Assembly: GCA_043732185.1 (NCBI GenBank)
Contig: JAYTHY010000136.1
Location: 2,326 to 66,325, forward strand
DNA length: 64,000 bases
Source: Fibrobacteria bacterium
Lineage (GTDB): Bacteria > Fibrobacterota > Fibrobacteria > UBA11236
Reading direction: 5' to 3'
Part shown: positions 10,338-52,862 of the stretch, piece by piece
Position numbering within the stretch: the stretch's first letter is position 1
Layout of the letters: each line of letters begins with the position of its first letter
Notes under the pieces: generated by a model
The model's input: the letters and a program-made list of their open reading frames with translations, nothing else
Told to the model about the DNA's origin: nothing
The model's database searches: none
Translations under genes and position numbers: made by a program

Positions 10338-10424
10338 TGGTGCCGAGGGGGGGAATTGAACCCCCACAGAGTTGCCCCTATCGGATTTTGAGTCCGACGC
10401 GTCTACCAATTTCACCACCTCGGC
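10338..10424 (-). tRNA. tRNA-Leu(CAA), type II with a long variable arm and encoded CCA
   Basis: Reverse complement reads GCCGAGGTGGTGAAATTGGTAGACGCGTCGGACTCAAAATCCGATAGGGGCAACTCTGTGGGGGTTCAATTCCCCCCCTCGGCACCA. It has a 7-bp acceptor stem, anticodon stem TCGGA/TCCGA with loop CTCAAAA, and T-arm GGGGG-TTCAATT-CCCCC. Confidence 0.9.
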
Positions 10425-35274: not shown

Positions 35275-35944
35275 AACTGAAGTTGTTGCCGGATCAGACC
35301 CTACTTTTTTTAAGGGTTCCTTCTTGGTTTTCCTGCTATTTCTTCCAGCCTTTTTGCTGATTATTCTTGCCATTTTGTTAGCCATGCAATACAAGCAATT
35401 GCGGGCATTTGTTTCTCCTCAGGCCATTGAACTATTAACCGTACCCGTTTCGCCGGAAGCCCAAGTAGCAGTGGTGGCCAAGCTGCACACCTTTTTTACA
35501 AATGCGCGTTCCGATAGTTTATCAGACACATTGGCCCTGTCCATAGTCGAGGTAAACCATCTCGTTCGGTCCAGTTCGTCCTTGGAAGCATTACACCTTG
35601 ATTACCATATGGATATTCAGGACACCCTGCTGATAGCCCATAACAGTTTGCCGGTGGACCGATTAAATGGCGTTCTATCCCTCCTTGCTAAAACCTTACG
35701 TGTGAAGGGCTTCCTCAATTCGGAAATGCGTGGCTATATCACTGTTTCAAAATCCGGGGTAAATATTATACCCGTTTCAGCAACCATGAATGGAGTAGCC
35801 GCGCCGATTTCCGTCTTGAATCGCAAAGGCGGAATTGATCCTTCCGAATGGGTCGCGGATCGAGACTTTTACAACCGTTGCTTGGCCCGCTTGTCCGGTA
35901 TTGAGATTCGAAATGGCTCTCTGCTTTTTATTAAACGGCCTTGA
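35234..35944 (+). CDS. Hypothetical membrane protein trailing the oxidase operon
   Basis: One strongly hydrophobic helix (FLVFLLFLPAFLLIILAILLA). The start is uncertain and the 3' end converges on and overlaps the ECF sigma gene. Confidence 0.35.
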   Translation: MIPPVKKVTHLPLKTEVVAGSDPTFFKGSFLVFLLFLPAFLLIILAILLAMQYKQLRAFVSPQAIELLTVPVSPEAQVAVVAKLHTFFTNARSDSLSDTLALSIVEVNHLVRSSSSLEALHLDYHMDIQDTLLIAHNSLPVDRLNGVLSLLAKTLRVKGFLNSEMRGYITVSKSGVNIIPVSATMNGVAAPISVLNRKGGIDPSEWVADRDFYNRCLARLSGIEIRNGSLLFIKRP

Positions 35945-36444
35945 GCCTGCATGTCCCGCTTAAACCGAGTGAGCCTGCGCGTAATGGCAACCCTGGATAC
36001 GCCCATATGTACGGCAATTTCTCGGTGATTGAGTCCTTGTTCCAGGCTCAAGTGTAAAATCTCTTTCAGCTTCCCGCGTACTTTTGGGAGGGCTTTTTCC
36101 AAGCGCATGCGGTGCAAAACATGGTCTTCCTCCGGCTCCCGGAAGTTGCCTATCGTATCTTCATAACCCATTTGACTTCGCTTGTCCATTTGGTCGCGAT
36201 GCTTTTTAATTCTACTGAAACAGTCGTATTTGGCGATGGTGCCAATCCAGGTGAGGGGATCGCATTTCCATTCAAAATCGTTCCACGCACGAAAGGCTTT
36301 AATAAAGACATCATGTGAGGCATCTCTGGCTTCTTCCCTGTCTTTCAAAAAATATTGGCAGATACCCAAAACCTTTTGATGGTACCTGCTATAAAGTAAT
36401 CCTTGCCAATCCGCACTATTTTTCAATTCTTCATTAGCCGTCAT
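35869..36444 (-). CDS. ECF-subfamily RNA polymerase sigma-70 factor
   Basis: Sigma-2 region (HDVFIKAFRAW) and sigma-4 HTH (LNHREIAVHMGVSRVAITRRL). Confidence 0.8.
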   Translation of the reverse strand: MTANEELKNSADWQGLLYSRYHQKVLGICQYFLKDREEARDASHDVFIKAFRAWNDFEWKCDPLTWIGTIAKYDCFSRIKKHRDQMDKRSQMGYEDTIGNFREPEEDHVLHRMRLEKALPKVRGKLKEILHLSLEQGLNHREIAVHMGVSRVAITRRLTRFKRDMQAQGRLIKSREPFRISIPDKRAKQRL

Positions 36445-36598
36445 TGCTTTTTTTTCCTTTAGGATCCAGGTTTGGAAAAGGGATCCAGAAGCTTAGACGG
36501 AAAAAATATTTAGGAATGTAGTCAGGCTTTTAGGCGTGCCTATGTAAAGCGCTCCATTTTGTGAGCGCGAAGGTTAGGTGATGGAAAAGAAGGAAACT

Positions 36599-37612
36599 TT
36601 ATCTCGTTGCAGGAACTTGGTCGAGAAGGTCCTGGTTTCCATCAGGCCAGCACAATCCGGAAGCGGGTCGGCACGGGAAATGGAAATGCAAGAGAACGGG
36701 TCCATCAGGGGGCGGAGTGCTCCGATTATTTTTAGAGGTCGCCACAGTGACTTCTGCAAGCACGGTAACGGCTGGAACTAAATATTCGCCGTCCCGTGAA
36801 TTGGCTGAACCCAATTTTTCTTTGGTTACGACGTAGCTTTCAAAGATGCGCACGGGCTTGATGAAGCGAATGGCGAGATTATCTGGATGGAAAGGATAGG
36901 TATAGGTTCGAGTGTGGGTTCGCGATTTCTCCCATTTTTTAAGGCTATCCGCCACCATTTCTTTGGACGGGATTTGCTGTGAACCTGTTTCAACCAACTC
37001 TGGATCCCGGAAAGAAAAGGACTGAAGTGCGCCACCAGCACCGTAGGCCACACGAATTTGCATCGCATCCCCGAGTACAATGCGGCCATCTACTTTTTTT
37101 AGATAGCGACCTATGTAGTAGGCCGGTACAGCCGGACCAACGCTATCTTTGTGTTCCGGATCTCGCTTTTGGACCATGGTTATTTCATAATTGGCAAAAA
37201 CCAGGTTTTCAATTTTTTCTCTCAGGACGGATTTTACAAGCATATCCGATTTAAGGTGGATTGACGAATCCGGAACAACATCTTTTTGGGTGAGTGCCGG
37301 AACCATTTCATTGGTAAAGGCGAACTCGGATGTCGCAGGTTCATATGCCAAGCGTGCACCAACCCTGTCATGCCAACTGGTATTGACCCCGGATATTTGG
37401 GGCTTACCCATTGGCCGAAGTTTAAAGGTTGCCAATAGTGATTTGATATTTTCTGGATTTAAGGGACGCGGCGCAATTTGGTAATATTTTGCGGTCACAT
37501 ATTCACCGGGTTGGGATTGCACTACCGGGGCAGTAGGTGCCGCATTCGAAAGGGCCACAAAAAGGCCGGCCAATGTCCATATCGAAATTTGCTTTTCCAC
37601 TTTTCGCTCCAT
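36599..37612 (-). CDS. Hypothetical secreted protein (operon member C)
   Basis: Signal peptide. No recognisable domain. Confidence 0.5.
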   Translation of the reverse strand: MERKVEKQISIWTLAGLFVALSNAAPTAPVVQSQPGEYVTAKYYQIAPRPLNPENIKSLLATFKLRPMGKPQISGVNTSWHDRVGARLAYEPATSEFAFTNEMVPALTQKDVVPDSSIHLKSDMLVKSVLREKIENLVFANYEITMVQKRDPEHKDSVGPAVPAYYIGRYLKKVDGRIVLGDAMQIRVAYGAGGALQSFSFRDPELVETGSQQIPSKEMVADSLKKWEKSRTHTRTYTYPFHPDNLAIRFIKPVRIFESYVVTKEKLGSANSRDGEYLVPAVTVLAEVTVATSKNNRSTPPPDGPVLLHFHFPCRPASGLCWPDGNQDLLDQVPATR

Positions 37613-37658
37613 AAATGAATGAGGGGACGTTTATTCTAGAATGCGAATCATTCTGACC

Positions 37659-38492
37659 TTAGTACTGCGGTGTTCCAATAATCCGGGAGTAATAATTTCC
37701 GCTATTGGCGATTGCCAAAGCGTAATCGTGGTTCACGTTCCGGAAGGTGGTGCTGCAATGGTCCGGGCTTCCCGCAAATACTTGTGCGGATAGGCAACCG
37801 GGTTCCAAACCTCTTGTGGGGTACAGATGCTTGTATCCATAGTTGGCCTCGGCATCGAAAAAGGCGTTGTAGAGATTTTTTTCGCGAAATGTCCAGTTGA
37901 GCCAAAAATCATTGAACAAATCCCAGCTTAGATTATTGTCGTAGATCAGAGACTTAAAACTGAGCATGGCTTTTAGGCCACGAAAGGAAGTTTGCCAGGC
38001 ATCGGCAGGGGGTGTGGCCGTTTTGAAAATGGAACAGCCGTGGGCCATAAACCAACGGGTGTATCCGGTTCCAAGCGATAAATTATTGGGTCCCACTGCA
38101 CCATAGTTGACACCTGCTCCAAGGTAGAGATTGCCGCTGATTCCGTGACCACCATAATACACGAAATCGCAATATTCACGGTTGCCTTGGGTATTGCTTC
38201 CAGAAGTTATTGCGGCTTTGGTGACGTACGTATTCCGTTTGTCCAACGCAAATGTTGGTCCAGTGGTGCCCAAGCCTGGGGAGGCGTTCAGGCTGGAGAA
38301 GGGTGGTACATTGACATTGGCGCCAGCAAAAAAGTTTTGGCCCATAGCAATTTGATAGCTGAGATTGGGGAGACCACCGCCATTGCCTCCATAGTCGTCA
38401 ATTGTATAGGTGCCAATATCCAAGCTGGGTGGAAAGGCCGATACCAATACCGTTAACGCACCAATGGCAATCAAACCTTTGGAAATATTCAT
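37659..38492 (-). CDS. Hypothetical secreted protein with a possible clan-CD-like His-Gly / Cys dyad (operon member B)
   Basis: Signal peptide. DFVYYGGHG, then WFMAHGCS about 37 residues later. The peptidase interpretation is a hypothesis only. Confidence 0.5.
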   Translation of the reverse strand: MNISKGLIAIGALTVLVSAFPPSLDIGTYTIDDYGGNGGGLPNLSYQIAMGQNFFAGANVNVPPFSSLNASPGLGTTGPTFALDKRNTYVTKAAITSGSNTQGNREYCDFVYYGGHGISGNLYLGAGVNYGAVGPNNLSLGTGYTRWFMAHGCSIFKTATPPADAWQTSFRGLKAMLSFKSLIYDNNLSWDLFNDFWLNWTFREKNLYNAFFDAEANYGYKHLYPTRGLEPGCLSAQVFAGSPDHCSTTFRNVNHDYALAIANSGNYYSRIIGTPQY

Positions 38493-38534
38493 CGTCGCAT
38501 CCTCTCTTCATTTTTATTCTCAACCAACAGGCTT

Positions 38535-39440
38535 CTAAAGTCCATGGGTTCGGAGTGTAAGGGTGTTGTTGGTGTGCATGGACAGAATCTTTTTGCCAAT
38601 TTCGAACTCTTTTGGTTGCATCTGGTCTAGTTCTACTACTTCATATATTTCCACTTCACTGCCATGCTGCCCGGTTGAATTGGGGCTTAGCCTTAACAAT
38701 CGTAGGGGATAATGGCCTTCCGGTAAGGGTCCAAGCCGAAGGGAATCCAGTTTTACCGGCCAATAAAAGGGCGAGCCAGGAATATAGAAACTGAGAACAG
38801 AATTATTTAGAGTTGTAGACTGCGTCACGATATTTGTCGCATTACACTTTCCCTGGAAATAGCGTTCTGTTCGATCCAAAAAGTTCGAATTTTCCGGAGT
38901 TAAAGAAGTTGCAGGATCAATAAGCTGGCCGCTAGATGTCGAGTATTTGAATCCCATTAAAAACGATTTACCCCAGCGAGTAGACACAATCAGTATGTTG
39001 AAATCTAAAGTGTCACGGCCCTGTGTAAGCAGGGGAGACAGGCTGGCGGAGGAAAGCGTCACCGTATCCAGCTCCTGAAAAGCAATCGTTACCTGTGGTA
39101 CGGAATCCAAGGAGGGAATGGCACTGCTTTTAAAAATCGTCAGGGAGCCGTTGATTTTAAAGCCCACTGCCTGAAAGGTGGAGTCCAAGAAGGAGAATAA
39201 AAATTTTAAATCTTTGCCAGATTTCCATTTAACCTGTATGGTGGTGTCGCCAACCAAATCAGGAGGCCAGGTTGTTCGCGACGATGCACCGGCCAGCAAA
39301 TCTTGATCTTCAACTTTTGAATCTGTTTTTGAATCGGAACCAGGTAGACTTGTGTCCGGAGCCATACAGCCAAGGACAAACAGGCCGAATACCCAAGTGG
39401 AGACATACTTTTTTCCAGATTTCCAGCGGATTGTTTTCAA
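38535..39440 (-). CDS. Hypothetical lipoprotein (operon member A)
   Basis: Lipobox VFGLFVLGC. No recognisable domain. Confidence 0.5.
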   Translation of the reverse strand: MKTIRWKSGKKYVSTWVFGLFVLGCMAPDTSLPGSDSKTDSKVEDQDLLAGASSRTTWPPDLVGDTTIQVKWKSGKDLKFLFSFLDSTFQAVGFKINGSLTIFKSSAIPSLDSVPQVTIAFQELDTVTLSSASLSPLLTQGRDTLDFNILIVSTRWGKSFLMGFKYSTSSGQLIDPATSLTPENSNFLDRTERYFQGKCNATNIVTQSTTLNNSVLSFYIPGSPFYWPVKLDSLRLGPLPEGHYPLRLLRLSPNSTGQHGSEVEIYEVVELDQMQPKEFEIGKKILSMHTNNTLTLRTHGL

Positions 39441-39455
39441 GGTTGCTTTCCTCGT

Positions 39456-40349
39456 TCAACGGGTATTGGGAATGATTTGAAATACCAAGGTGCAGACTTT
39501 ATCCGTTTTTTTATCCTTGGCGACAACTTCTTGAATTTCATCATCGAGCGCCGCCACTTTTTCACGGATGATTTTTAGGCTTTCATTGGATACGGTCAAC
39601 ACTTGGGTATTGTAGGCTTTGAATTTTCGAAATCCATCCTCGACAATACTGGAACTGAGATCATGAATTTGGCGGTTATAGCCTAAGGCAACTTCCCCCT
39701 GGAAGGCATCACCGGAAATCAGCAAATTGTTGGTGAGTGCGTACCCGGTATCTGACTTTCGAATCATTTGGAGATCGACGAGCAGATCAATGGCTTCCTG
39801 CACCTGGTCGGCGGAAATGGGAGGGTAGATTTCCTTGGCGATATCTGCAGGGCGAACTTTTTTTTGATCCAGCCCTAGGTAGTTGAAAACGACAGCGTAA
39901 TACCATTTGGCGTAGTACTTGTGCTGATTCTCCCGCACGATCCAGGCTTTGGAATTCCTAAATTTTGAAAGCTTGCCGAACAAAAAATTCCTTTCCAGGT
40001 CTGACCTGGCCTGGTTATGCTGAACCAGAACATCAAAATACTGGTTTTCCTTTTCGCCCAGGGAGAGAGCGGCCGCACAGCGAACCCGCAACTTGGGACC
40101 CAAATCCCGCTTGCCTTGCATCACGGAATAGAGCAGCGCCGTCGACCCAAAATATTTCAGGGAAAACGCCCGCTTGGAAAACTTGCTATTGCCTTTCTGT
40201 TTCCATTTCATAAAATCGGTCAAAAAGAGCCTGTATTCCAAATACTGGAACAGGCTAGGCTTGATCGAGTTGTTATGTGAAATAAGAGTGTTCAAATGGT
40301 CCGTCCGGTAACCGGAATTTTGCCTAGGCAGCAAAAATTCCAACTCCAA
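39456..40349 (-). CDS. TIGR02147/DUF4423-like protein (Fibrobacter/FCB-group conserved hypothetical family)
   Basis: N-terminal YLEYRLFLTDFMKWKQKGNSKFSKRAFSLKYFGSTALLYSVMQGKRDLG fits the family pattern as I recall it. 15-nt gap to the downstream lipoprotein gene. Confidence 0.45.
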   Translation of the reverse strand: MELEFLLPRQNSGYRTDHLNTLISHNNSIKPSLFQYLEYRLFLTDFMKWKQKGNSKFSKRAFSLKYFGSTALLYSVMQGKRDLGPKLRVRCAAALSLGEKENQYFDVLVQHNQARSDLERNFLFGKLSKFRNSKAWIVRENQHKYYAKWYYAVVFNYLGLDQKKVRPADIAKEIYPPISADQVQEAIDLLVDLQMIRKSDTGYALTNNLLISGDAFQGEVALGYNRQIHDLSSSIVEDGFRKFKAYNTQVLTVSNESLKIIREKVAALDDEIQEVVAKDKKTDKVCTLVFQIIPNTR

Positions 40350-40411: not shown

Positions 40412-41419
40412 TTACTCCACCGTCCACGTGCTGCCGGAGTTGAATAGTTTGTCCAAGCTAGGAGGATTTTTGGCGGCTGCCGTATCGATCTGAGCGCGCA
40501 TGGCATCCGCATAGGAAGGCCTATCGACATTACGGAACACGCCCACCGGAACGGGGTACTCGGGATGGGACAATCGGGAGAGGTGAAAACCCAATGCACC
40601 GGTAGATTCCTTTTCATCATGCACCAGGATCTCAGAATCTAAGGGGTTCACCTTGGTCTTGATGGCCATCTTGTCCAGAACCAGAGCTTTTTCCAATTCT
40701 TTGCCATAGCGCATGGGCTGACCATGCTTTAAATAGAGTAGGGTATCTGGGCGGGTTGGGCGGCCATAGTACGGCTCGTGAATTTTATCCGCAAAGATAA
40801 TGCAGTTCTGGAGCACTTCAACCAATGCCGTTCCTTTATAAGCCGCAGCTGCAGCAAATACTTCACCCATATGTTTCACGTCATTGTCGGAGGTCCGGGC
40901 CACAAATCCGGCTTCAGCTCCAATGGCCATGCTGATAGGTGACAACGGCAAGTCTACGGAGCCCATGGGTGTGGAGGGGCTCACCGTCCCAACGCCGGAG
41001 GTGGGGGAATACTGGCCTTTGGTTAATCCATAGATTTTATTGTTGAACAGGATAATCTTGAGATCCATGTTTCGACGCAGGGCGTGGATAAAATGGTTGC
41101 CGCCAATGCTGAGCGCGTCGCCGTCTCCGGTAATGACCCAAACTTGGAGATTGGGGTTGCTGAGCTTGACTCCAGTTGAAATGGCGGGTGCCCGACCATG
41201 GATGGTATGAAATCCATAGGTGTTCATATAGTACGGGAAGCGACTGGAACAGCCGATGCCGGATACGAACACAAAATTTTCCTTGGGAAGGCCCAAAGTT
41301 GGCAGAATGCCTTGCATGGTGGACAAAATGGAATAATCTCCGCAGCCCGGACACCATCGAATGGCGGAAGGTGACGCAAAGTCTTTACGCGAGAGCGGTT
41401 CGGCCGTAGTCGTTGTCAT
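40412..41419 (-). CDS. korB: 2-oxoacid:ferredoxin oxidoreductase beta subunit (TPP-binding)
   Basis: CPGCGDYSIL and a TPP-binding GDG block. Confidence 0.85.
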   Translation of the reverse strand: MTTTTAEPLSRKDFASPSAIRWCPGCGDYSILSTMQGILPTLGLPKENFVFVSGIGCSSRFPYYMNTYGFHTIHGRAPAISTGVKLSNPNLQVWVITGDGDALSIGGNHFIHALRRNMDLKIILFNNKIYGLTKGQYSPTSGVGTVSPSTPMGSVDLPLSPISMAIGAEAGFVARTSDNDVKHMGEVFAAAAAYKGTALVEVLQNCIIFADKIHEPYYGRPTRPDTLLYLKHGQPMRYGKELEKALVLDKMAIKTKVNPLDSEILVHDEKESTGALGFHLSRLSHPEYPVPVGVFRNVDRPSYADAMRAQIDTAAAKNPPSLDKLFNSGSTWTVE

Positions 41420-43308
41420 TTCTGAGTCTCCAAAATGCGATGAAATTCTGCGGTGAGATAGGAAATTTTAAAGGGCTTGCCACGAACCTGGCTAATGCTT
41501 TGAATAGGCACGCCAAAGGTACCTCCCAACAACATTTTCAATTGACCCATATTCAATTCGGGTACAATGATCCGTTCGGCATTTCTGAGGATTTCGCCCA
41601 GGTTACGTGGGAATGGATTCATGTGCTGAAGATGGACGTGTCCGAGTTCCATGCCGCCTTTATTGCATTCATCGACTGCCGTCGAGACAGAGCCATAGGT
41701 TCCACCCCAGCTGACAACGATAGTCTTAGCATTTTTGTGGCCTGCTATTTCAATCAGAGGAATGTCATTGGCGATATTGGCAATTTTGGCGTGTCGCTCA
41801 TTGGTCATGGCCTGATGATTTTCCGGATCATAGGAGATTGTTCCTGTATTGTGGGCTTTTTCCAAACCACCGATGCGATGCTCTAACCCTTGAGTTCCCG
41901 GTATGGCCCACTTTCTGGCCTGAGTAATGGGATCCCGCTCATAAGGCATAAAGGCTTCTCCAGCCTGAGCGAGCTTCACTTCCATTTTAGGCAGTTTATC
42001 CGGGTCTGGAATAATCCACGGTTCCGATCCATTTGCGATGAACCCATCCGTCAATAGAATGACGGGAGTCATATATTTCATGGCGATACGGGCAGCCTCA
42101 TAGGCCATTTCAAAACAGTCACCGGGTGAACGGGCCGCTAATACCGGGAGTGGGCTGTCGCCACTGCGGCCGAACATAACCATCAGTAAATCACTTTGTT
42201 CCGTTTTTGTCGGCAATCCTGTGGATGGGCCACCGCGTTGCACGTCGATGATGACTAATGGCAGTTCCGTCATGACGCCGAGACCCATGGCTTCCAGCTT
42301 AAGGCAGACACCCGGTCCGGAGGTAGACGTGACACCCAAGTTACCGGCATATGCCGAACCGATGGCAGAGCAAATGGCCGCAATTTCATCTTCCGCTTGG
42401 AAGGTAATGACTCCGTAATTCTTGTATTTGGATAATCCGTGAAGGATATCGGATGCGGGTGTGATTGGATAGCTGCCGCAGAAAATATTGCGCCCGGATT
42501 TTTGTGATGCCGCGAGCAGACCGAATACAGTAGCCTCGTTGCCGGAGATCTTACGGTACTTGCCTTTGGGCAGCGCCGCTTTTTTGACTCGGTAATGCGA
42601 AGTGAAAAGCTCTACCGTGTCTGAAAAATAGAATCCGGACATCAGCGCCTTTTTATTGGCTTCGGCAATTTGTGGCTTATCCTTATACTTGGTTTTGGGA
42701 CCATACTTTTCATCCAACCACTTCAAGGTATGATTGAGCGGACGGTCGTACAGCCAATACATCATGCCTAAGGTGAAGAAGTTTTTGCACAGCTCTGCGG
42801 ATTTGCCTTTAAGACCTGTTTCGGCTACGGCGTTGATGGTAAGCTCCGTGATATTGGCACGAATGACGCGGTAACCGGCAAGTGACCCATCCTCCAAGGG
42901 ATTGGTTTTGAACTCGGCCTTTTCAATATCTTTTTCCGTGAAACCGGCTTCGTCCACTAGGAGTATGCCGCCTTCTTCCAGATCCGCGATGTTGGCTTTG
43001 AGCGCGGCTGCATTCATGGCTACCAAAACATTCAGGTCATCCCCGGGTGTTTTGATTTCTTCCGATGAAAAATGGATTTGAAAAGCACTGACGCCGGCTA
43101 CGGTACCGGCAGGCGCTCGAATTTCCGCGGGAAAATCCGGCATGGTGGCCAGATCGTTTCCAAAAAGGGCAGAGGCATCGGTAAATTGGGTGCCCGTGAT
43201 TTGCATGCCATCACCGGAATCTCCAGCGAATCGGATAGTAACCGAATCCACATCGATATGGGCTTTTTCATTGGGATTGATCGGGATGTTATGTACTTCT
43301 GTTGACAT
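41416..43308 (-). CDS. korA: 2-oxoacid:ferredoxin oxidoreductase alpha subunit (fused alpha/gamma)
   Basis: 630 aa with POR/KOR N-terminal and catalytic domains. 4-nt overlap with korB. Confidence 0.85.
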   Translation of the reverse strand: MSTEVHNIPINPNEKAHIDVDSVTIRFAGDSGDGMQITGTQFTDASALFGNDLATMPDFPAEIRAPAGTVAGVSAFQIHFSSEEIKTPGDDLNVLVAMNAAALKANIADLEEGGILLVDEAGFTEKDIEKAEFKTNPLEDGSLAGYRVIRANITELTINAVAETGLKGKSAELCKNFFTLGMMYWLYDRPLNHTLKWLDEKYGPKTKYKDKPQIAEANKKALMSGFYFSDTVELFTSHYRVKKAALPKGKYRKISGNEATVFGLLAASQKSGRNIFCGSYPITPASDILHGLSKYKNYGVITFQAEDEIAAICSAIGSAYAGNLGVTSTSGPGVCLKLEAMGLGVMTELPLVIIDVQRGGPSTGLPTKTEQSDLLMVMFGRSGDSPLPVLAARSPGDCFEMAYEAARIAMKYMTPVILLTDGFIANGSEPWIIPDPDKLPKMEVKLAQAGEAFMPYERDPITQARKWAIPGTQGLEHRIGGLEKAHNTGTISYDPENHQAMTNERHAKIANIANDIPLIEIAGHKNAKTIVVSWGGTYGSVSTAVDECNKGGMELGHVHLQHMNPFPRNLGEILRNAERIIVPELNMGQLKMLLGGTFGVPIQSISQVRGKPFKISYLTAEFHRILETQK

Positions 43309-44625: not shown

Positions 44626-45447
44626 GTGGGTGAAAGTACAAAAAACCGTTTCGGAGCCAGAATCATCGGGATTGTAACGTCCGCTAACCGAAAGGATCCA
44701 GAAGCTTGGAGCGCCCTAGCAAAATGCGCTATGGTTGAATTCCGCGCCGACAGCTGGGAAGCCTCCCAGATTCCGACAGAATTACGGTCTTTCCGGGACG
44801 AATACAAACAACGGTTTGGTTCCGACCCTGAGACGATTTTCACTATTCGCTTAGCACGGGATGGTGGCGCGTGGCTCGATTCCGAGGCAGCTCAACGGGA
44901 CAAAATTTGGATAGCCCTGGAAGGGGATGAAGCAGGATGCCAGAGTGAGTGGATTGATGTGGAATTGGAACATATCGCTTCGCTTTCCCCAGCGTTGGTT
45001 TCCTTGATCGCGGACAAAAAATTCAAGGTACTTGTGTCCCACCACAATTTTGAGGGCAGCTACAGTAAAGAGGCGCTTGCACGTTTGGGTCGGGACATGC
45101 TGGCTGTTCGGGCCGATGGTATAAAACTGGCCACCACGTGTCGAACCCGAGCAGAGGTACTGAATCTCATGCATTTCGCGCGAGAAGCCGCCATAAGTCG
45201 AAAGCCCGCCGCAGTTCTAAGCATGGGTACCGTAGGCCAGGCTATGCGAATATTGAGTCCGCTACTGGGTTGCCCATGGACCTATGGTTATCTTTCAGGA
45301 GGTGCGGTGGCCCCGGGCCAATTTTCCGTCAGTCAAATGCACAATATTTTTACCAGGATGGACGTGCCAATGCAGCCAGACCTATCGGATTCGGAAATGT
45401 TTGATTGGGTGGAAGGCCGCCTAAATGAGGCGCTCCTTGCGAATTAG
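44626..45447 (+). CDS. aroD: 3-dehydroquinate dehydratase, type I
   Basis: VEFRAD, VSHHNF, the Schiff-base Lys region IKLAT, and SMGTVGQAMR motifs. GTG start. Confidence 0.75.
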   Translation: MGESTKNRFGARIIGIVTSANRKDPEAWSALAKCAMVEFRADSWEASQIPTELRSFRDEYKQRFGSDPETIFTIRLARDGGAWLDSEAAQRDKIWIALEGDEAGCQSEWIDVELEHIASLSPALVSLIADKKFKVLVSHHNFEGSYSKEALARLGRDMLAVRADGIKLATTCRTRAEVLNLMHFAREAAISRKPAAVLSMGTVGQAMRILSPLLGCPWTYGYLSGGAVAPGQFSVSQMHNIFTRMDVPMQPDLSDSEMFDWVEGRLNEALLAN

Positions 45448-48400
45448 CTTGGCTCGAAAATGGACGCTCAAAAGCCTCTTGTTCTCGGCGATCCTCTGTG
45501 GATGGTCTCTGGGATGGGGACAAGAATTCGGCCAAAACAAAGTGCAGTTCCAGCAATTTGTTTGGTCTTATTACCGAACGGAACATTTCGATATCTACTT
45601 TCCGCAAGGTGCGGAGCTGATCGCGAATTTTGCAGGAGGCCATGTTGAGGAGATGTATAAAAGTGTTTCCGCAACAGTCGGCCATCGACTCACGGGACGC
45701 GTTCCTATTATCCTACACAATTCGCATGTGGAGTTTGAACAGACCAATGTCATCCGCCTCCCTTTGCATGAAGGCATCGGTGGCTTTACGGAAATTTTCA
45801 AGAACCGGATTGTGCTTCCGTTTGAAGGCAGCTATACGGAATTTTACCATGTCTTAAAGCATGAAATGACCCATGCTGTCATGTTCGATATGATGTTTGG
45901 TGAAAGCGCCGCTTCCAAGGTTTCCAATCAAGGTGGCCAATTTCCGTTATGGGTGAGCGAAGGCTTGGCTGAGTACGCTTCCTTAGGTTGGGATCTGTCT
46001 TCAGAATTTTTCATGGTGGATGCGACCACTTTTGGTTATGTCGAACCGCCCACTTCCGACTTCGGTGGGTTTTTAGCCTACAAAGGAGGCCAACTGTTTT
46101 TCCATTGGATGGAAAAAACCTACGGCAAGCCTGCGGTCACAAAATTAATCCAAAGTATGACAGACTCGCATGACCTTCCTCAAGCATTTAAAAAAGTAAC
46201 CAAGACATCATTGGAAGAGGCGGGGGAAATCTGGCTGCGTGAATTGCGATACCTTTATTGGCCGGAACTCGGTCAGCGTAAATACGGTAAAAGTATAGCC
46301 AGACGATTAACGGAACACGGCAAAGACTTATCCTTTTTCAATTTGCAGCCATCCATATCGCCCAATGGCGAGGAGATTGCCTTTTTCAGCGATAGAGAAT
46401 CTTGGGAAGCGATATTCATTCTCAATATCAAAAGCGAAAAAGTCACCCGCTCAGTCATTCAAGGAGGAAAGGAAGGGAAGCATGAAAGCTTTCACTCTTT
46501 TAAATCGGGAATCACCTGGAGCCCGGACAGCAAGCAACTTGCTATTGTCAGCAAAAGTCAAGGGAAAGACGTCATCAATATCATCGATGCGCGCAAAGGC
46601 ACCGTCAAGCGAACCATCACTCCTGAAGTGCAGGCTATACTATCGCCAAATTGGTCGCGCGATGGCCGACGAATCGCCTTCAGTGGCATGCAAGATGGCC
46701 TCACCGACATTTATGTCTGGGATTTAGAAACCAGCACGTTATTGCGATTGACACATGATTTGGCCCATGATGATAAACCGGTATTTTCTCCTTCTGGACG
46801 CTGGATAGCGTTTGAAACGGACCGGCCGGATGCTGCGATCCGACCGCTTTCTCCCCATCCTCTAGACGACTACAATCAGTTGCTTCCATTTAAGGATATC
46901 TATAAGATTCGTAGTGAAGGGGACAGCCTGGTCAAAGTGGCCGGCGGCAATTGGGATGAAAAGGAGCCCTCCTACGGTCCGTCCGACACCACCCTGATGT
47001 TCATTTCCAATCGGTCCGGCATCGACAACATTTATATGAGCAAGGATTCGGTCGGTATGTCTTTGGTCAGACCCGTAACCAACCTGCTTTCCGGATGTTT
47101 CACGCCATCGTGGTCGAGAAGCGGTGGACTGCTGGCTTTTTCCCTTTTTGAAGAAGGAGGTTGGGATATTTTTCTGATGAAGGATCCGGTGAGTAAAGTT
47201 ATTTCTGGTGAGCTTCCCAAAACCCGTTTTATCAAAACCCAAGAAGACAGCGCCTTAAGTTTCTTTCGCCCATTAAATTGGGCGAACCTCTCCAGCTACA
47301 ATGCCGACAGTGTCCGCACGGATTCGCTTGGAAGACTAGACTCCTTAAAAAAAGTTGCCAGCAAAGATTCAACCCGTAAAGACAGTCTCTCTAGGGATAC
47401 AACGGCCAAAACTGTCCCATCCGATACGAATAAAAACACGGTGGTTGCCGAGAAGGCCCCTTCCGGCGACAGTGTGGAATCAGCAGGGAGCAAGAAAAAA
47501 GGGAAGAAGAAAAAGGATTCCGTTTTTCTGACTGACAGCTCCGCGTATCTGGCCGGTGATGGAGGGTTTTTAAAACGAAAATACAAGCCTGTATGGAGTC
47601 TGGACAATGCTAACGCGGCCCTAGGAGTTGACAACCAGTATGGATATGGAGGCCTAGCATATATAACCTTGAGCGATTTAATGGGCGATCAGGAGTTGTC
47701 CTTTGCCCTCAGCATCAATGGTAGCTGGGAGAATACGAATGGTTCAGTTGCTTACAGCTATTTGCCCATGAAAACGGATTTGACAATTAGTGCCTACCAC
47801 CAAGCCCAACTTTCGAATGGATTGCTGCAGGATTCCGGCTCGATATCTCCGCCAGACAGTGTGTTTCTGGACAGACAATTTGGTTTCGGAGCAATGGCGC
47901 GTTACCCTTTTTCGGTATATACGCGGCTTGAGTTTGAAGCCAGAACTTTGTTTTCTTCCCGAAGTCTGCAGTCTAATCAGGGTGGCAAATTTGTCACTGA
48001 TAATAGCTATGATCCCATTACCATCAACGCGGTTTTTCCAACTTTGAAATGGGTGCATGACAATACCATCTGGGGAATTGTCGGTCCTGTGAATGGGGAA
48101 CGAGTTTACGGTGCTATCCAGGCCGTACCGCCGGTATTTCAAGATCATATTTCCTTTTATACGCTTGATGCTGATGCCCGTAAATACTGGGAGTTTTTTA
48201 AAAAGTATACTTTAGCTGTCCGAGTCTCCGCAGGCGCTTCTGAAGCCATCGGCAATTATGAAAATCCGCACCAATTCTGGGTAGGCGGTGAAGATTTCAC
48301 TTTTAATGCGCATGCAAATTCGGCGAATCTCCCGAAAAAGCTGGAAGAGTTTTACTTCTCACAATTCGATTTTCCATTGCGGGGATTCGACTATTATGAA

Positions 48401-48703
48401 TTTAAAGGCACACGGAAATTCGTCAGCAATGTTGAATTCAGATATCCCTTTATCCGCGAGTTTTCTGTGGTCTGGCCAATACCATTAGTCTTACGGTATG
48501 TAATGGGTAATGTATTCATGGATTACGGCGGCGCATGGTCGTCGGGCGATCCATTTGATGTCATGGGAATGGGGCTTGGATATGGCATGCGTATGAATCT
48601 CGGAATATTCGTACTGAAGTACACGCGGTCCTGGGCCATCAAAGGCATCGGCTCGCATGAAAATCCACAACGGGATTATTGGTCCCTGGGCGCAGAGTTT
48701 TAA
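45425..48703 (+). CDS. Large secreted/outer-membrane multidomain protein: HExxH metallopeptidase-like domain, TolB-like beta-propeller repeats, C-terminal Omp85/D15-type beta-barrel
   Basis: Signal peptide. HEMTHAV plus a downstream EGLAEY. Repeated SP(N/D)G-type blades (SISPNGEEIAF, WSPDSKQLAIV, SPNWSRDGRRIAF, FSPSGRWIAF). The C-terminus FMDYGGAW...GMGLGYGMRMNLGIFVLKYTRSWAI...F resembles the BamA/Omp85 barrel ending. Confidence 0.6.
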   Translation: MRRSLRISLARKWTLKSLLFSAILCGWSLGWGQEFGQNKVQFQQFVWSYYRTEHFDIYFPQGAELIANFAGGHVEEMYKSVSATVGHRLTGRVPIILHNSHVEFEQTNVIRLPLHEGIGGFTEIFKNRIVLPFEGSYTEFYHVLKHEMTHAVMFDMMFGESAASKVSNQGGQFPLWVSEGLAEYASLGWDLSSEFFMVDATTFGYVEPPTSDFGGFLAYKGGQLFFHWMEKTYGKPAVTKLIQSMTDSHDLPQAFKKVTKTSLEEAGEIWLRELRYLYWPELGQRKYGKSIARRLTEHGKDLSFFNLQPSISPNGEEIAFFSDRESWEAIFILNIKSEKVTRSVIQGGKEGKHESFHSFKSGITWSPDSKQLAIVSKSQGKDVINIIDARKGTVKRTITPEVQAILSPNWSRDGRRIAFSGMQDGLTDIYVWDLETSTLLRLTHDLAHDDKPVFSPSGRWIAFETDRPDAAIRPLSPHPLDDYNQLLPFKDIYKIRSEGDSLVKVAGGNWDEKEPSYGPSDTTLMFISNRSGIDNIYMSKDSVGMSLVRPVTNLLSGCFTPSWSRSGGLLAFSLFEEGGWDIFLMKDPVSKVISGELPKTRFIKTQEDSALSFFRPLNWANLSSYNADSVRTDSLGRLDSLKKVASKDSTRKDSLSRDTTAKTVPSDTNKNTVVAEKAPSGDSVESAGSKKKGKKKKDSVFLTDSSAYLAGDGGFLKRKYKPVWSLDNANAALGVDNQYGYGGLAYITLSDLMGDQELSFALSINGSWENTNGSVAYSYLPMKTDLTISAYHQAQLSNGLLQDSGSISPPDSVFLDRQFGFGAMARYPFSVYTRLEFEARTLFSSRSLQSNQGGKFVTDNSYDPITINAVFPTLKWVHDNTIWGIVGPVNGERVYGAIQAVPPVFQDHISFYTLDADARKYWEFFKKYTLAVRVSAGASEAIGNYENPHQFWVGGEDFTFNAHANSANLPKKLEEFYFSQFDFPLRGFDYYEFKGTRKFVSNVEFRYPFIREFSVVWPIPLVLRYVMGNVFMDYGGAWSSGDPFDVMGMGLGYGMRMNLGIFVLKYTRSWAIKGIGSHENPQRDYWSLGAEF

Positions 48704-48736: not shown

Positions 48737-49201
48737 ATGAAACTATCGGAATCCTTTTCGGAAAAGTGCATCATCATTGATTCCCCGCAAAACCATAAAC
48801 GCGAACTTATTTCGGATATGGTGGATTTGTTATGTCAATCGTATCAGATTGAAAACCGTGACGGCGTGCTGAAAGCTGTGCTGGGTAGGGAAGCGAAAAT
48901 GTCAACTGGCATTGGTTGTGGTCTGGCGGTTCCCCATGGCAAAGTGGACTTCTTGGATAAGATGTGCGTCGTTGCCTGTTCCGTAAAACGCGGGATTAAT
49001 TTTGAAGCCATTGACAAGGAAAACGTGTATTTACTTTTTCTGATTGTTTCGCCGGCAAATACAACGGGCCCACATATTCGAGCGCTCTCGGCAATATCTA
49101 GAATCATGTCCGATGCCGATATTCGTCGCAGTCTCATCGCCTCAGAAAGCCCGTTGGAGTTCTACAACAATTTGAAAATCGGCGAGGCGAAGTACGCCTA
49201 A
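48737..49201 (+). CDS. ptsN: PTS EIIA(Ntr)-type nitrogen regulatory protein
   Basis: 154 aa with the PTS EIIA type-2 fold and the His-containing GCGLAVPHGK motif. Confidence 0.75.
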   Translation: MKLSESFSEKCIIIDSPQNHKRELISDMVDLLCQSYQIENRDGVLKAVLGREAKMSTGIGCGLAVPHGKVDFLDKMCVVACSVKRGINFEAIDKENVYLLFLIVSPANTTGPHIRALSAISRIMSDADIRRSLIASESPLEFYNNLKIGEAKYA

Positions 49202-49402: not shown

Positions 49403-50191
49403 TTGAAGCATATGCCTACCTTCAAGAATTCGAAAGCCCTCGTATATTGTTCCGAATGGGGCCACGTGGACACTGAAGTTTCTTTAGAGCGACAATCTAC
49501 CGAGCTACAGACCTATTGCTTAATGCACGGTCTTGAGGTGGTGGATATCATTTCTGATACGACTGCGCACGTTCCAGGGAAGCTACGCTTAGGCATGGAA
49601 CAACTTATGCATCGGGTAAAGACTGAGCGCATTGGGCATATCATCATTTATGATGTGAGCCGAATTGGGCGTGAAGGAAAAGAAATTTTGACGTTTCTAC
49701 AGGATGCTTTTGAATCCAAGGAAACAGAAATTCATATTTACGCTTGGAAAATGAGCACGGGTTCCGCTGAAGGTCAAAGATTTTTAGCGATGGCCTCCGA
49801 AATTGTTGGAAAAGAAATACCTGTAAGTAAAGAAAAACCACAAATAATATCCGCAGCGAGTGGGCGTGGTGAAAATCTTAGGCATAAGCCATTGTGGGCA
49901 AGGCTATTTGGAATGCTCCAGGATGAACGCTATGCGGAAATTTTAATCAAGGCCTTGTTTCAAATCAAAGACTCCGTTCACCTCAGCGAATCAGAATATG
50001 TTGCCGTGCATGGCGGCTACGATCATCTCATCCTGTTTCGTGCCCTTGGATTCCGAATTAAGGGTGAGAAAACCGATAATACCAAGTTGGTGACCGACGT
50101 TTTAGTGCTCTACTGGGATACGCTTAAGGGCCATATCGGCCCGGACCTCCATAAAATTATAGCAGGCTCTGAAACCGGCGCAATTTTCTGA
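49403..50191 (+). CDS. Serine-recombinase (resolvase) fold protein with apparently degenerate catalytic residues
   Basis: ALVYCSEWGHVDTEVSLERQ...HIIIYDVSRIGRE aligns to the resolvase YxRVSTxxQ...LDRLGR blocks, but with His for Arg8 and Asp for Ser10. The C-terminal 130 aa are unknown. Alignment done by eye. Confidence 0.45.
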   Translation: MKHMPTFKNSKALVYCSEWGHVDTEVSLERQSTELQTYCLMHGLEVVDIISDTTAHVPGKLRLGMEQLMHRVKTERIGHIIIYDVSRIGREGKEILTFLQDAFESKETEIHIYAWKMSTGSAEGQRFLAMASEIVGKEIPVSKEKPQIISAASGRGENLRHKPLWARLFGMLQDERYAEILIKALFQIKDSVHLSESEYVAVHGGYDHLILFRALGFRIKGEKTDNTKLVTDVLVLYWDTLKGHIGPDLHKIIAGSETGAIF

Positions 50192-50306: not shown

Positions 50307-52862
50307 TTGGCCGCTGAAGCCCATAAAACACTCATAATAGCCGAAAAACCCAGTGTCGCCGGCGATATTGTGAAGGCTTTGCCCGAAAAATTCGAAAAGC
50401 ACGAAAGTTATTACGAGAGCCCCAGTTATGTCGTTTCTTATGCGATTGGCCACCTTGTCGGAATAGCCAACCCCAAAGAAATGGACGAACGATTCAAAGA
50501 ATGGGGTCTTAAAAATCTGCCTATCATTCCTGAAAAATTTTCCATCCTGCCCCTTCCCAAAACCAAATCACAGCTTTCGGCATTAGGCAAATTGCTTCGT
50601 CGTAAGGATGTCAAAGAGATTGTAAATGCATGTGACGCAGGCCGAGAAGGCGAATTGATATTCCGGTATATCCTGCAATATTCCGGTGAATCGAAGCCCA
50701 TCAAAGGAACCATCCGAAGACTTTGGCTGCAGAGCATGACGAAAACAGCCATTGAGACGGGCTTCCAACATTTGCGAACCGATGGGGAAATGCAAAATTT
50801 GGCGCAGGCAGCTATGTGTCGTTCTGAAGCGGACTGGCTCATTGGCATCAATGGGTCTCGAGCTCTCACCGGCTACAAGTCCCAATGGGGCGGTTTCTTT
50901 TTGACTCCATGTGGCCGTGTGCAAACGCCCACACTCTCCATGATCGTAAATCGAGAATGGGATAGAGAAAAATTTATTCCAAAGAATTTTTGGGAAGTGA
51001 ATGCGGATTTTGGTCGGTCTGGATCCAAAGCGGGTTCAGATGCCGAGTATTCCGGTCGGTGGTTTGACCCTGAGTTTAAAAAGAAAGAAGGGGTTGAAGA
51101 TGTCCGCCCGGAACGCATTTGGGATCTCGCCCGCGCTCAAGAAATCCAATCAAAGTGCCAGGGGAAACCGGCGGTAGCTACTGAAACCCAGAAGCCTTCT
51201 TCCCAGGGCGCATCGTCGCTATATGATTTGACCAGCTTGCAAAGGGATGCAAATTCTCGCTTCGGATTTTCCGCCAAGAACACATTGGGATTGGCGCAGG
51301 CGCTTTATGAACGCCATAAGGCACTAACCTATCCGAGAACGGACAGTCGATACCTCCCCAACGATTACTTGGAGGTGGCGAAAGGGCTGATGCAAAGTTT
51401 AAAGCAGGGTGAGTATGGTCGTTTTGCCACGCAAGCTTTGGAAAAGAATTATGTGCGAATGGACAAACGCATATTTGATGAGAGCAAGGTTTCCGATCAC
51501 CATGCCATCATTCCCACCAACGTAATTCCCACCGACCTTTCCGAACCGGAACGCAAAATTTATCAAGCCGTGGTTCAGCGCTTTTTGGCGGTCTTTTTCC
51601 CACCGGCGAGATTCCTGAATACCTCACGCATTACTGTCGTCGAGAAGGAACACTTCCGCACAGAAGGCAAGGTGATGGAGGAGGCCGGCTGGAAGGCCAT
51701 TTACGGAGTGGACAAAAAAGAAGAAGAGATTCTTGCGCCACTTATTCCCGGATCCGTTTATTTGGCCGAACAGGTCAACCTAAAGGAAGATGCTACCAAG
51801 CCACAGCCCAGACTTAATGAATCCACCCTGTTGGCTTTTATGGAAAGTGCAGGAAAGTATGTGGAAGATGAGGATCTGGCAGAGGCCTTAAAGGCGCGCG
51901 GCTTGGGAACCCCAGCGACTCGTGCGGCCGTAATCGAAGGTTTATTGTACGACAAATACATTGTTCGCGAGGGCAAGGAACTTGTGCCCACCGCCAAAGG
52001 GGCGGATTTGATGCGACTCCTTTCTGCCATGGGTATTGAAGAATTGGTTTCTCCGGAGTTGACTGGCGAGTGGGAATTTAAACTGAACCGCATTGAACGT
52101 GGATTGTATACCCGGCCTGAGTTCATGCAGGAAACCGTAGATTTGGCGCGAAAAATTGTGTCAAAAATCAAGGGATATGACGAGGATAAAGAACGCAAAG
52201 AGGCCTCTTTTACCAGTCCTCTAGATGGTCAAAAAATGTTTGAAACATTGACGCGCTTCGAGTCTGCCGATGGCACGTTGATGGTGCGCAAGGTTCTCGG
52301 TGGTCGTCAAATGTCCGAGGCGGAAATCATCGAGCTCTTGACCAAGCGGCAGATTGGACCCTTGCAGGGCTTTCGCAGCAAGCAGGGCAAGCCTTTTACG
52401 GCAGCTTTAAAAATCAACGAAAAGAGTAAGGTCGAATTCGTTTTTGATGATAATACGTCCGGCATGGATGGAAACCCTCTCGATCTCGCTGTTGAAATTC
52501 CGGTGGGTATTTCGCCAACAGATGGAACCAGGGTTTTTGAAACCCTTACCGGCTATGCCTCGGAAAGTGCCATCAATGGAGATGCCAAGCTTGGTCTCAA
52601 GATCAATAAAATGATCTTGGGAAAAACGATTGATAGGGAGAACCTGGCCCTGATGCTGGCTGGGGAAAAAACCCAATTGATTAAGGGATTCCAATCTTCC
52701 AAGACCCGCCGGTTTTTTGATGCCTATTTAAAACTTTCCAAAGACGGAAAAATCCAGTTTGAGTTTCCGCCACGCGTATTCAAAGGGCGAGGCAAGTCTA
52801 AGCAAGTGACAGAAGAGGAACCGGCTGGCCAAGAACCGGCCGCCCAAGGTCCGGACGGTTAG
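50307..52862 (+). CDS. topB: DNA topoisomerase III
   Basis: N-terminal Toprim LIIAEKPSVAGDIVKAL (topo III style). Type IA core with the catalytic Tyr region. The C-terminus has duplicated about 60-aa repeats. TTG start. Confidence 0.85.
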   Translation: MAAEAHKTLIIAEKPSVAGDIVKALPEKFEKHESYYESPSYVVSYAIGHLVGIANPKEMDERFKEWGLKNLPIIPEKFSILPLPKTKSQLSALGKLLRRKDVKEIVNACDAGREGELIFRYILQYSGESKPIKGTIRRLWLQSMTKTAIETGFQHLRTDGEMQNLAQAAMCRSEADWLIGINGSRALTGYKSQWGGFFLTPCGRVQTPTLSMIVNREWDREKFIPKNFWEVNADFGRSGSKAGSDAEYSGRWFDPEFKKKEGVEDVRPERIWDLARAQEIQSKCQGKPAVATETQKPSSQGASSLYDLTSLQRDANSRFGFSAKNTLGLAQALYERHKALTYPRTDSRYLPNDYLEVAKGLMQSLKQGEYGRFATQALEKNYVRMDKRIFDESKVSDHHAIIPTNVIPTDLSEPERKIYQAVVQRFLAVFFPPARFLNTSRITVVEKEHFRTEGKVMEEAGWKAIYGVDKKEEEILAPLIPGSVYLAEQVNLKEDATKPQPRLNESTLLAFMESAGKYVEDEDLAEALKARGLGTPATRAAVIEGLLYDKYIVREGKELVPTAKGADLMRLLSAMGIEELVSPELTGEWEFKLNRIERGLYTRPEFMQETVDLARKIVSKIKGYDEDKERKEASFTSPLDGQKMFETLTRFESADGTLMVRKVLGGRQMSEAEIIELLTKRQIGPLQGFRSKQGKPFTAALKINEKSKVEFVFDDNTSGMDGNPLDLAVEIPVGISPTDGTRVFETLTGYASESAINGDAKLGLKINKMILGKTIDRENLALMLAGEKTQLIKGFQSSKTRRFFDAYLKLSKDGKIQFEFPPRVFKGRGKSKQVTEEEPAGQEPAAQGPDG

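Follow-up and report, generated by a model that had tools for sequence, protein, structure and literature searches.

What is the role of a protein that combines, in a single chain, a putative zinc peptidase, a beta-propeller and an outer-membrane beta-barrel? This question is raised by a gene on contig JAYTHY010000136.1 of a Fibrobacteria bacterium (assembly GCA_043732185.1), of which we analysed a stretch of 64,000 nucleotides (nt), in the following called the window. A first-pass annotation, made from the letters alone, had read the product of 1092 amino acids (aa) as a fusion of a metallopeptidase-like domain, a TolB-like propeller and an Omp85-type barrel. It knew of no described architecture of this kind and proposed a surface-anchored protease or a two-partner-secretion-like transporter. 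We find that the protein is a Fibrobacterota member of a family that was described computationally in 2014 and is widespread in the Fibrobacteres–Bacteroidetes group, i.e., the WD40-like Omp85 proteins. With regard to function, we consider it fairly probable that the protein forms a protease–propeller module that faces the periplasm and is tethered to the outer membrane, and we are less confident about any specific substrate of this module.

An intact gene with three domains

The open reading frame (ORF; the coordinates of all features are collected in Table 1) contains no internal stop codon. NCBI contains a full-length protein with 98% identity (P0001), and more than 120 further full-length sequences are homologous to the 1092-aa protein at 35-98% identity; close homologues with a named source come nearly all from Fibrobacterota metagenome-assembled genomes (MAGs). 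Given the near-identical protein and the full-length homologues, we take the ORF to be a real gene and not a frameshift fusion. The first-pass annotation had named such a fusion artefact as a way in which its reading could fail. We rejected it, since the same single-ORF layout is seen in more than 120 close full-length orthologues and in more than 46 distant ones, and the architecture is found as one ORF in hundreds of genomes. Horizontal transfer was rejected as well because the GC content of the gene (0.48-0.50) is that of the rest of the window.

For the conservation statistics, we used 45 Fibrobacterota homologues and 46 full-length orthologues of other phyla (27-36% identity), i.e., 91 sequences from at least 12 phyla. 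With 45 homologues as input, AlphaFold2 yielded a model of the full-length protein that reaches a mean predicted local distance difference test score (pLDDT) of 83.7 and a predicted template-modelling score (pTM) of 0.82. Its disorder is limited to aa 1-33, 629-696 and 801-809, and all strands, helices, turns and loops given below refer to this predicted structure. Since propeller matches swamped the full-length profile search of the PDB, we made separate alignments for the individual segments. Pfam or NCBIfam matches were obtained for all three domains, and the landmarks of the first-pass annotation were found where it had placed them, that is, HEMTH (aa 146-150), SEGLAEY (aa 178-184), the central PD40 repeats, KKKGKKKK (aa 690-697), FMDYGGAW (aa 1031-1038) and the terminal Phe.

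The N-terminal domain as a predicted zinc peptidase

The N-terminal part had been called gluzincin-like on account of its HExxH motif and a downstream Glu, and the homologues bear this out. The predicted catalytic set H146, E147, H150, E179 and Y219 is 100% conserved in the Fibrobacterota as well as in the cross-phylum sequences. The same holds for W176, G180 and E183 around the third ligand and for G119, G120 and T122 of the GGFTE motif, whose E123 is nearly invariant. Judged by this sequence pattern, the domain is likely an active enzyme, which would work either as an exo- or as an endopeptidase.

Among the family models, Pfam Peptidase_MA_2 (PF13485) matches with 18.8-22.3 bits (E=1.2e-4), i.e., below its gathering cut-off of 32.4, and several homologues carry a precomputed PF13485 match (of a threshold not stated on the record). 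The NCBIfam flagellinolysin model, which covers an HExxH domain, matches the N-terminal domain with E=4.6e-8. The PDB profile search with this domain gave no significant sequence match; its best match was the cold-active M1 aminopeptidase 3cia at a sub-threshold E=0.4, and this weak alignment sets AYKGG onto PYVKGQLFL of 3cia. As nothing significant came from the PDB sequence profiles, we relied on fold comparison for this domain. It has a predicted thermolysin-like fold in which HExxH is complemented by a Glu as third ligand on the subsequent helix, that is, it is a gluzincin.

Compared with M9 collagenases, M30 lugdulysin/hyicolysin and M1 aminopeptidases, all of them gluzincins of clan MA, the identity is only 10-16%. 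Family M1 does not fit. The N-terminal beta domain and the C-terminal ARM domain that flank the catalytic domain in M1 are lacking here, GGFTE is found instead of GxMEN with its Glu shifted by one position, and the second His and the Glu ligand (H150 and E179) are 28 residues apart, compared to 18 in M1. The sole catalytic feature in common with M1 is the Tyr Y219, as set by the weak alignment. Because of the displaced Glu and the His-Glu spacing, we assign the domain to the gluzincins but not to family M1. That GGFTE stands at the place of GxMEN is presumed from the spacing, and a comparison with LTA4H provides a lead only. M9 differs by its activator domain, which is lacking here. Overall, the peptidase is M9/M30-like rather than strictly M1-like.

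The HExxH domain could also be a binding pseudo-peptidase, which would turn the protein into a non-catalytic scaffold, i.e., a TolB-like structural link within the envelope. A Pfam peptidase match under the threshold fits such a role, and a TolB-like propeller suggests protein–protein interaction. Pseudo-enzymes, however, usually lose the general base, whereas the H, E, H, E, Y set stays invariant over all 91 sequences, down to 27% identity. Owing to these invariant catalytic residues, we rate the scaffold as very improbable.

The propeller

For the central part, a TolB/PD40-type propeller with at least four blades had been proposed. The propeller as such is well supported (Pfam PD40 with five matching stretches, E=1.9e-20; TolB by PDB profile search, E=2.4e-25, and by Foldseek, E=3e-12). 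The number of blades was an undercount, since the model shows about 23 strands over residues 306-586, which fits six four-stranded blades. The NCBIfam TolB propeller match reaches E=9.1e-37, yet it stays under the family cut-off. For the TolB (Tol-Pal) equivalog TIGR02800, 127 bits compare to a cut-off of 343, and the best-scoring stretch (profile positions 198-299 of 418) lies inside the propeller. That is, the protein shares a PD40-type six-bladed propeller with TolB, whereas TolB's N-terminal alpha/beta domain for TolA binding is absent here.

The logic of joining a propeller to a peptidase is shared with the tricorn protease and its factor F3, with prolyl-oligopeptidase and with DPP-IV, and the precomputed Pfam matches of orthologues include Tricorn_N and Tricorn_2nd. 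In contrast to these enzymes, the peptidase is here predicted to be a metallo- and not a serine peptidase, and the protein to be anchored to an envelope membrane instead of being cytosolic.

The barrel, the linker and the export signal

The full-length Pfam scan missed the Omp85 family (PF01103). When the C-terminal 392 aa were scanned alone, PF01103 reached 33.8 bits, above its gathering cut-off of 24 (E=3.4e-8), in a match that covers positions 62-325 of the 325 in the Pfam model; 16 out of 22 homologues match as well. The model shows 16 strands over aa 724-1090. Foldseek matches it to BamA and TamA barrels, with template-modelling (TM) scores of 0.62-0.65 when isolated BamA barrels are compared (about 400-430 aligned columns). 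The PDB profile search with the barrel found BamA of D. radiodurans (8xnb, E=1.8e-6) in an alignment that covers the FMDYG stretch. The annotated Omp85-type barrel is thus supported by the PF01103 score above gathering, the 16-strand model and the Foldseek matches.

The hallmark motifs of the superfamily are kept as well. R986 and G987 of the RG(F/Y) motif in loop 6 are invariant in the Fibrobacterota homologues and found in 46 of 47 cross-phylum sequences, where the FxDxG motif is equally stable (F1031 47/47, D1033 46/47, G1035 45/47) and a terminal aromatic residue, here Phe, is kept in 45/47. Going by these sequence patterns, the barrel is under selection, and its score, strand number and motifs place the protein in the Omp85 superfamily. 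In the model, the turns inferred to be periplasmic comprise 2-5 aa and the extracellular loops 8-55 aa, while strand 16 is short (aa 1083-1090).

No POTRA model was found at E<=1 in the Pfam scan, for which the HMMER filters drop most matches above about 0.1. In addition, the ordered stretch between the disordered linker and strand 1 consists of 23 residues only (aa 701-723), so a POTRA domain is unlikely also for lack of room. With no detectable POTRA, the protein does not belong to the POTRA-bearing Omp85 proteins (BamA/TamA/TpsB). TpsB/ShlB-type barrel models gave no match in the Pfam scans, i.e., PF01103 is the sole barrel match, and the NCBIfam scores are far under their cut-offs (BamA of the Deinococcus type 26.2 vs 1050 bits, TamL 19 vs 400, Omp85_fam 16.6 vs 200).

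The linker ahead of the barrel has its core (aa 629-696) at a pLDDT below 50. Its length varies between 34 and 160 aa in the homologues and its conservation is low; the KKKGKKKK tract within it (nt 47492-47515) is retained in the closest relatives only. Ahead of this poly-Lys tract we observed repeated (K/R/T/L)-D-S/T-(L/T) motifs (TDSL, LDSL, KDST, KDSL, RDTT), and in many homologues a D-S/T motif closes the linker directly before the conserved pre-barrel segment.

At the other end of the chain, aa 1-32 are a probable Sec signal peptide as read from the sequence, with a hydrophobic core after a basic N-terminal region; the conserved part of the homologues starts at residues 20-35. In the model, aa 1-33 show a pLDDT below 50, and the N-terminal segment is not conserved. 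A lipoprotein was considered and, as judged from the sequence, rejected because the residues ahead of Cys25 (A-I-L-C) form a poor lipobox.

Table 1. Features of the gene, its product and the adjacent genes in the window (positions of the window, forward strand numbering).
Feature	Residues (aa)	Position (nt)	Strand	Remarks
Complete ORF, WD40-like Omp85 family protein	1-1092	45425..48703	+	ATG start, 1092 aa plus stop codon
Probable Sec signal peptide	1-32	45425..45520	+	MRRSLRISLARKWTLKSLLFSAILCGWSLGWG; read from sequence
Predicted gluzincin (clan MA) zinc-peptidase catalytic domain	34-295	45524..46309	+	
GGFTE	119-123	45779..45793	+	strand preceding the active-site helix; model strand 121-123
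HEMTH	146-150	45860..45874	+	predicted: two zinc-binding His and catalytic Glu; invariant in 45 + 46 homologues
WVSEGLAEY	176-184	45950..45976	+	E179 predicted third zinc ligand; on helix 175-187 (model)
AYKGG	218-222	46076..46090	+	Y219 predicted transition-state-stabilising Tyr; Y219 and G222 invariant
Six-bladed PD40/TolB-like beta-propeller	296-620	46310..47284	+	
Disordered linker	621-700	47285..47524	+	rich in Ser/Ala/Asp/Lys
Conserved pre-barrel segment	701-723	47525..47593	+	Y720 invariant; too short for POTRA
16-stranded Omp85-type beta-barrel	724-1092	47594..48700	+	end YWSLGAEF
Loop 6	942-996	48248..48412	+	55 aa, between strands 11 and 12 (model)
PLRGF	984-988	48374-48388	+	Omp85 (V/I)RG(F/Y) motif in loop 6
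FMDYG	1031-1035	48515..48529	+	FxDxG motif on strand 13
aroD gene (type I 3-dehydroquinase), upstream		44626..45447	+	Pfam DHquinase_I E=7.7e-37; 3' end overlaps the start of the studied gene by 23 nt
Phosphotransferase system (PTS) EIIA-2 gene (PtsN-like), downstream		48737..49201	+	Pfam PTS_EIIA_2 E=5.9e-31; 33 nt past the stop of the studied gene

Relation to known Omp85 families

Heinz and Lithgow (2014, Front Microbiol 5:370; PMC4104836) distinguished ten subfamilies within the Omp85/TpsB superfamily and named one of them WD40-like. This subfamily is defined by an Omp85 barrel with a propeller, i.e., by Pfam architectures of PF01103 plus PF07676 repeats, and covers several phyla. For its members, Table S3 of that study gives Phyre2 matches of the barrel to BamA (4k3b) and TamA (4c00), of the propeller to TolB (2w8b, 2ivz) and a 'best aminopeptidase hit' (1z5h, 4kxd, 4fgm; M1-type aminopeptidases or tricorn factor F3). 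Thus, the combination of barrel, TolB and aminopeptidase matches that the first-pass annotation had taken for undescribed was already on record. The main text calls the WD40–Omp85 fusion 'reminiscent of BamA+BamB' and does not discuss the peptidase, the catalytic residues or members from Fibrobacterota. A separate 'Metallo' subfamily of the same study carries PF00149 (Metallophos, according to Pfam a calcineurin-like phosphoesterase) and is a different family (PMC4104836).

The protein studied here shows a PD40/TolB-like propeller instead of POTRA ahead of its Omp85 barrel and a gluzincin domain at its N-terminus. It does not differ in kind from the WD40-like subfamily, i.e., both have the same three modules and no POTRA. 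By domain content, the 1092-aa protein is therefore a WD40-like Omp85 member, where the listed members (e.g., H1XQ58, D0MEQ5) were compared by description. Hanson et al. (2024) still count this subfamily among the uncharacterised Omp85 groups.

With BamA and TamA, the protein has in common the 16-strand barrel, the long loop 6 with RG(F/Y), the FxDxG of strand 13 and the C-terminal aromatic residue, whereas the enzyme–propeller module takes the place of their POTRA domains. Within the 64-kb window, there is no second Omp85 gene or canonical bamA; for Fibrobacter succinogenes, a separate Omp85/BamA (FSU_2654) is listed beside the OmpH-family FSU_2655 (PMC6851124).

The best precedent for the topology is PlpD, a patatin-like Omp85 protein formerly assigned to 'type Vd' secretion, in which an N-terminal enzyme is likewise linked to an Omp85 barrel. 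It is the sole enzyme–Omp85 fusion studied experimentally, and its enzyme domain, long assumed to be secreted, is periplasmic (PMC11116518). PlpD differs in that it carries a lipase and not a peptidase, has one POTRA domain and no propeller, and forms homodimers. A functional analogy only is provided by BepA, in which a zinc protease and a protein-interaction domain also meet at a site of outer-membrane assembly. BepA is a periplasmic M48 HExxH protease with tetratricopeptide repeats (TPR) that associates with the machinery for beta-barrel assembly (BAM). It belongs to an unrelated peptidase family, has TPR repeats where a propeller is found here and is a separate soluble protein.

Topology and proposed function

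Given these relations, we propose the following mechanism. After Sec export, the C-terminal 16-strand Omp85 barrel would insert into the outer membrane. The gluzincin peptidase, packed beside the six-bladed PD40 propeller, would then reside on the periplasmic side, held by a flexible tether of 34-160 residues. By analogy with tricorn, prolyl-oligopeptidase and DPP-IV, the propeller may serve as a filter or binding platform that admits only unfolded chains or peptides to the zinc site. From such a filter it would follow that the zinc peptidase works just below the outer membrane, where it cleaves peptides or envelope proteins that are unfolded or mis-targeted. We infer a role in envelope protein quality control or in the trimming and processing of peptides, just as we infer catalytic activity, periplasmic orientation, propeller gating and the nature of the physiological substrate.

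The side of the membrane is deduced from the model. The chain would enter strand 1 from the periplasm, since the model has 16 strands, since short turns alternate with long loops and since loop 6 is found between strands 11 and 12. That is, the enzyme–propeller module is expected in the periplasm, except if the linker ran back through the lumen that is normally filled by loop 6. Furthermore, the retained RG of loop 6 and FxDxG of strand 13 suggest that the barrel is more than an anchor and may engage substrates or partners.

The opposite orientation would result if the barrel, similar to type V secretion systems, translocated its own peptidase–propeller module, which would yield a protease, anchored to the surface or released, that serves to acquire nutrients or to capture substrates. 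Many organisms of these phyla degrade polymers and employ surface hydrolases, and a linker of 34-160 aa is long enough to span the barrel lumen. On the other hand, the RG/FxDxG lock of loop 6, which fills the lumen in BamA and TamA, is retained, strand parity in the model would put the linker on the periplasmic side, and the passenger is a compact module of 590 aa that is predicted to bind zinc and is not a beta-helix. Also POTRA domains are lacking, with PF01103 as the only Pfam barrel match. With its succession of N-terminal passenger, long flexible linker and C-terminal barrel, the protein bears a superficial likeness to autotransporters and to the type Vd model first drawn up for PlpD (PMC4104836), but the enzyme domain of PlpD proved to be periplasmic (PMC11116518). 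We thus consider surface display or self-export unlikely. Both proposals of the first-pass annotation, i.e., the surface-anchored protease and the two-partner-secretion-like transporter, lose weight in view of an Omp85-type barrel without POTRA, the periplasmic N-terminus predicted for strand 1 and the PlpD precedent.

Several points weigh against the periplasmic protease–propeller module. The side of the barrel on which the module is placed and an active site that faces the propeller are taken from strand parity in the model and from analogy only, and a passenger of about 600 aa could in principle be threaded to the cell surface. The Pfam peptidase match stays below its cut-off, and the PDB profile search with the N-terminal domain produced nothing significant. 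Our literature search for a functional study of the WD40-like Omp85 subfamily found none. Finally, we ran a locus scan with one genome per species, which returned at least 380 loci across the Fibrobacterota–Chlorobiota–Bacteroidota (FCB) superphylum and allied phyla; among the best 80 loci, which we examined, no neighbour conserved across phyla points to a pathway.

Distribution

The best 80 loci come from Fibrobacterota, Zixibacteria, Ignavibacteria, Calditrichota, KSB1, Bacteroidota, Balneolales, Rhodothermales, Marinimicrobia, Eisenbacteria, Cloacimonadota, Latescibacterota, Poribacteria, WOR-3 and Chlorobiota as well as from one bin labelled Deltaproteobacteria. Most of them span almost the whole query, and shorter matches are largely found on short or cut contigs. 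When the profile of the peptidase domain was used alone, 1076 clusters at 50% identity were recovered (E<=1e-30). Within the 150 best cluster matches, the peptidase domain begins no later than residue 84 (mostly at 12-46), and the proteins are for the most part 900-1200 aa long. A soluble form without barrel was considered for the short representatives of 565-669 aa and rejected, as these stop at arbitrary points or run into garbled tails, i.e., they are fragments. Since the peptidase domain is consistently N-terminal and the short clusters are fragments, the tripartite layout is, as far as sequences tell, ancient and stable. The distribution is wide and vertical.

One Fibrobacteria MAG encodes two paralogues, P0007 and P0061 (VJ385_01720 and VJ385_22800), with 76% and 46% identity to the query. 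Some genomes thus contain more than a single copy, which is also suggested by the accession lists of Heinz and Lithgow.

Genomic neighbourhood

Within Fibrobacterota, the order aroD, studied gene, PTS EIIA-2 is kept on three other contigs (L081, L082, L083) down to 39% identity, and the 23-nt overlap suggests co-transcription with aroD. This stable order, the at least 380 loci, the 1076 clusters and a GC content like that of the surroundings give the gene a housekeeping character. Outside Fibrobacterota, only the EIIA gene recurs from among the window's neighbours (5/80 loci). A conserved operon partner across phyla was rejected because the neighbours are lineage-specific, i.e., murA, an LpxH-like gene, or an AsmA-like gene with RNase R. 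With lolD-like genes also among the neighbours in other phyla, they provide a weak envelope flavour. In detail, murA is found directly upstream in 12 loci of Zixibacteria and Ignavibacteria, and a gene for an LpxH-like metallophosphoesterase is upstream in 14 other loci, in 13 of them on the opposite strand. In 15 loci of Ignavibacteria, Balneolales and Bacteroidota, a gene for an AsmA-family protein (about 1500 aa; Pfam AsmA E=4.8e-10), followed by that for RNase R, is located upstream in the same orientation (at about nt 1000-7900 of L013, L023, L024, L035, L043, L045, L050, L059, L063, L064, L072, L074 and L080; the upstream gene is cut in L014 and L044). Proteins of the AsmA type, e.g., TamB, are known to partner with Omp85 proteins, which makes this neighbour a possible functional lead.

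The AsmA neighbourhood bears on a further reading, namely that the protein is an assembly or quality-control factor for outer-membrane proteins. Nascent beta-barrel clients or AsmA-like ones would be captured at the seam of a barrel that acts on them as BamA or TamA do, the propeller would be a BamB-like scaffold (as suggested by Heinz and Lithgow), and the peptidase would degrade stalled clients, i.e., BamA and BepA would be combined in one chain. This is a sharper version of the periplasmic protease–propeller module to which capture at the barrel seam is added. In line with it, the hallmark motifs of the barrel are as conserved as the catalytic residues, the modelled strand 16 (1083-1090) is short as at the BamA seam, and BepA sets the precedent of a BAM-associated HExxH protease. 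The AsmA-family gene upstream in the 15 loci and the murA, LpxH-like or lolD-like neighbours in other phyla point in the same direction. However, POTRA domains are needed for the function of BamA and TamA, so their absence counts against a BamA-like mode. RNase R sits between the AsmA-like gene and the orthologue, and for this reason the synteny may be incidental; moreover, no partner is conserved in all phyla. We regard this factor as possible but doubtful.

Beyond the direct neighbours, two of the three contigs L081-L083 continue with genes for a glycosyltransferase (which the window lacks), a resolvase-like protein and a topoisomerase (Toprim/Topoisom_bac/Toprim_Crpt); the window stretches in the same gene-order comparison are 49403-50191 and 50307-52862. 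On the minus strand, 40412-43308 holds adjacent ORFs of 630 and 335 aa with counterparts at the same position in L081 and L083, which match POR/POR_N and TPP_enzyme_C, i.e., subunits of a 2-oxoacid:ferredoxin oxidoreductase. Also on the minus strand, a same-strand run of ORFs (35869-40349) comprises a sigma-factor-like ORF of 191 aa, three whose products of 277-337 aa have hydrophobic N-termini and are possibly secreted, and one of 297 aa; in L083, the gene at the position of the latter is annotated as DUF4423. About 9 kb downstream of the studied gene, a 454-aa ORF (57570-58934, plus strand) carries a Walker A motif (GGVGLGKTH) and is DnaA-like by its translation, which would place the window near a replication origin. 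The sole tRNA of the 64-kb window, and its sole Rfam match at the gathering threshold, is tRNA-Leu (CAA) at 10338-10424 (minus strand).

Implications

The single gene studied here is the expected orthologue of a known family, and one genomic instance adds nothing unexpected to it. What our analysis adds is that the catalytic set and the barrel motifs are strictly conserved over at least 12 phyla, that the peptidase is M9/M30-like, that POTRA domains are lacking, that the family is large and that its synteny is lineage-specific.

Omp85 proteins are central to the building of the outer membrane, yet beyond BamA, TamA, TpsB and PlpD, the subfamilies are functionally unexplored. Since the zinc-peptidase site and the barrel motifs are both strictly conserved, both halves of the protein are likely functional. 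The substrate and the side of the membrane would tell whether proteolysis in the envelope is a second use to which the Omp85 scaffold has been put. A possible outcome is a missing quality-control step of the FCB superphylum, to which gut Bacteroidota and fibre-degrading Fibrobacterota belong and in which the BAM machinery of the group differs from that of E. coli (PMC12611786).

As a tentative idea, to which we give a low probability, the protein could be a self-contained quality-control machine of the outer membrane. Its POTRA-less barrel with a BamA-like seam would capture the beta-signals of stalled or misfolded barrels or of further clients in the envelope, e.g., AsmA-like proteins, and would hand these clients over to its own tethered, propeller-gated zinc protease for degradation. 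If true, this would be an Omp85 scaffold with a degradative and not an assembly role, conserved across the FCB superphylum.

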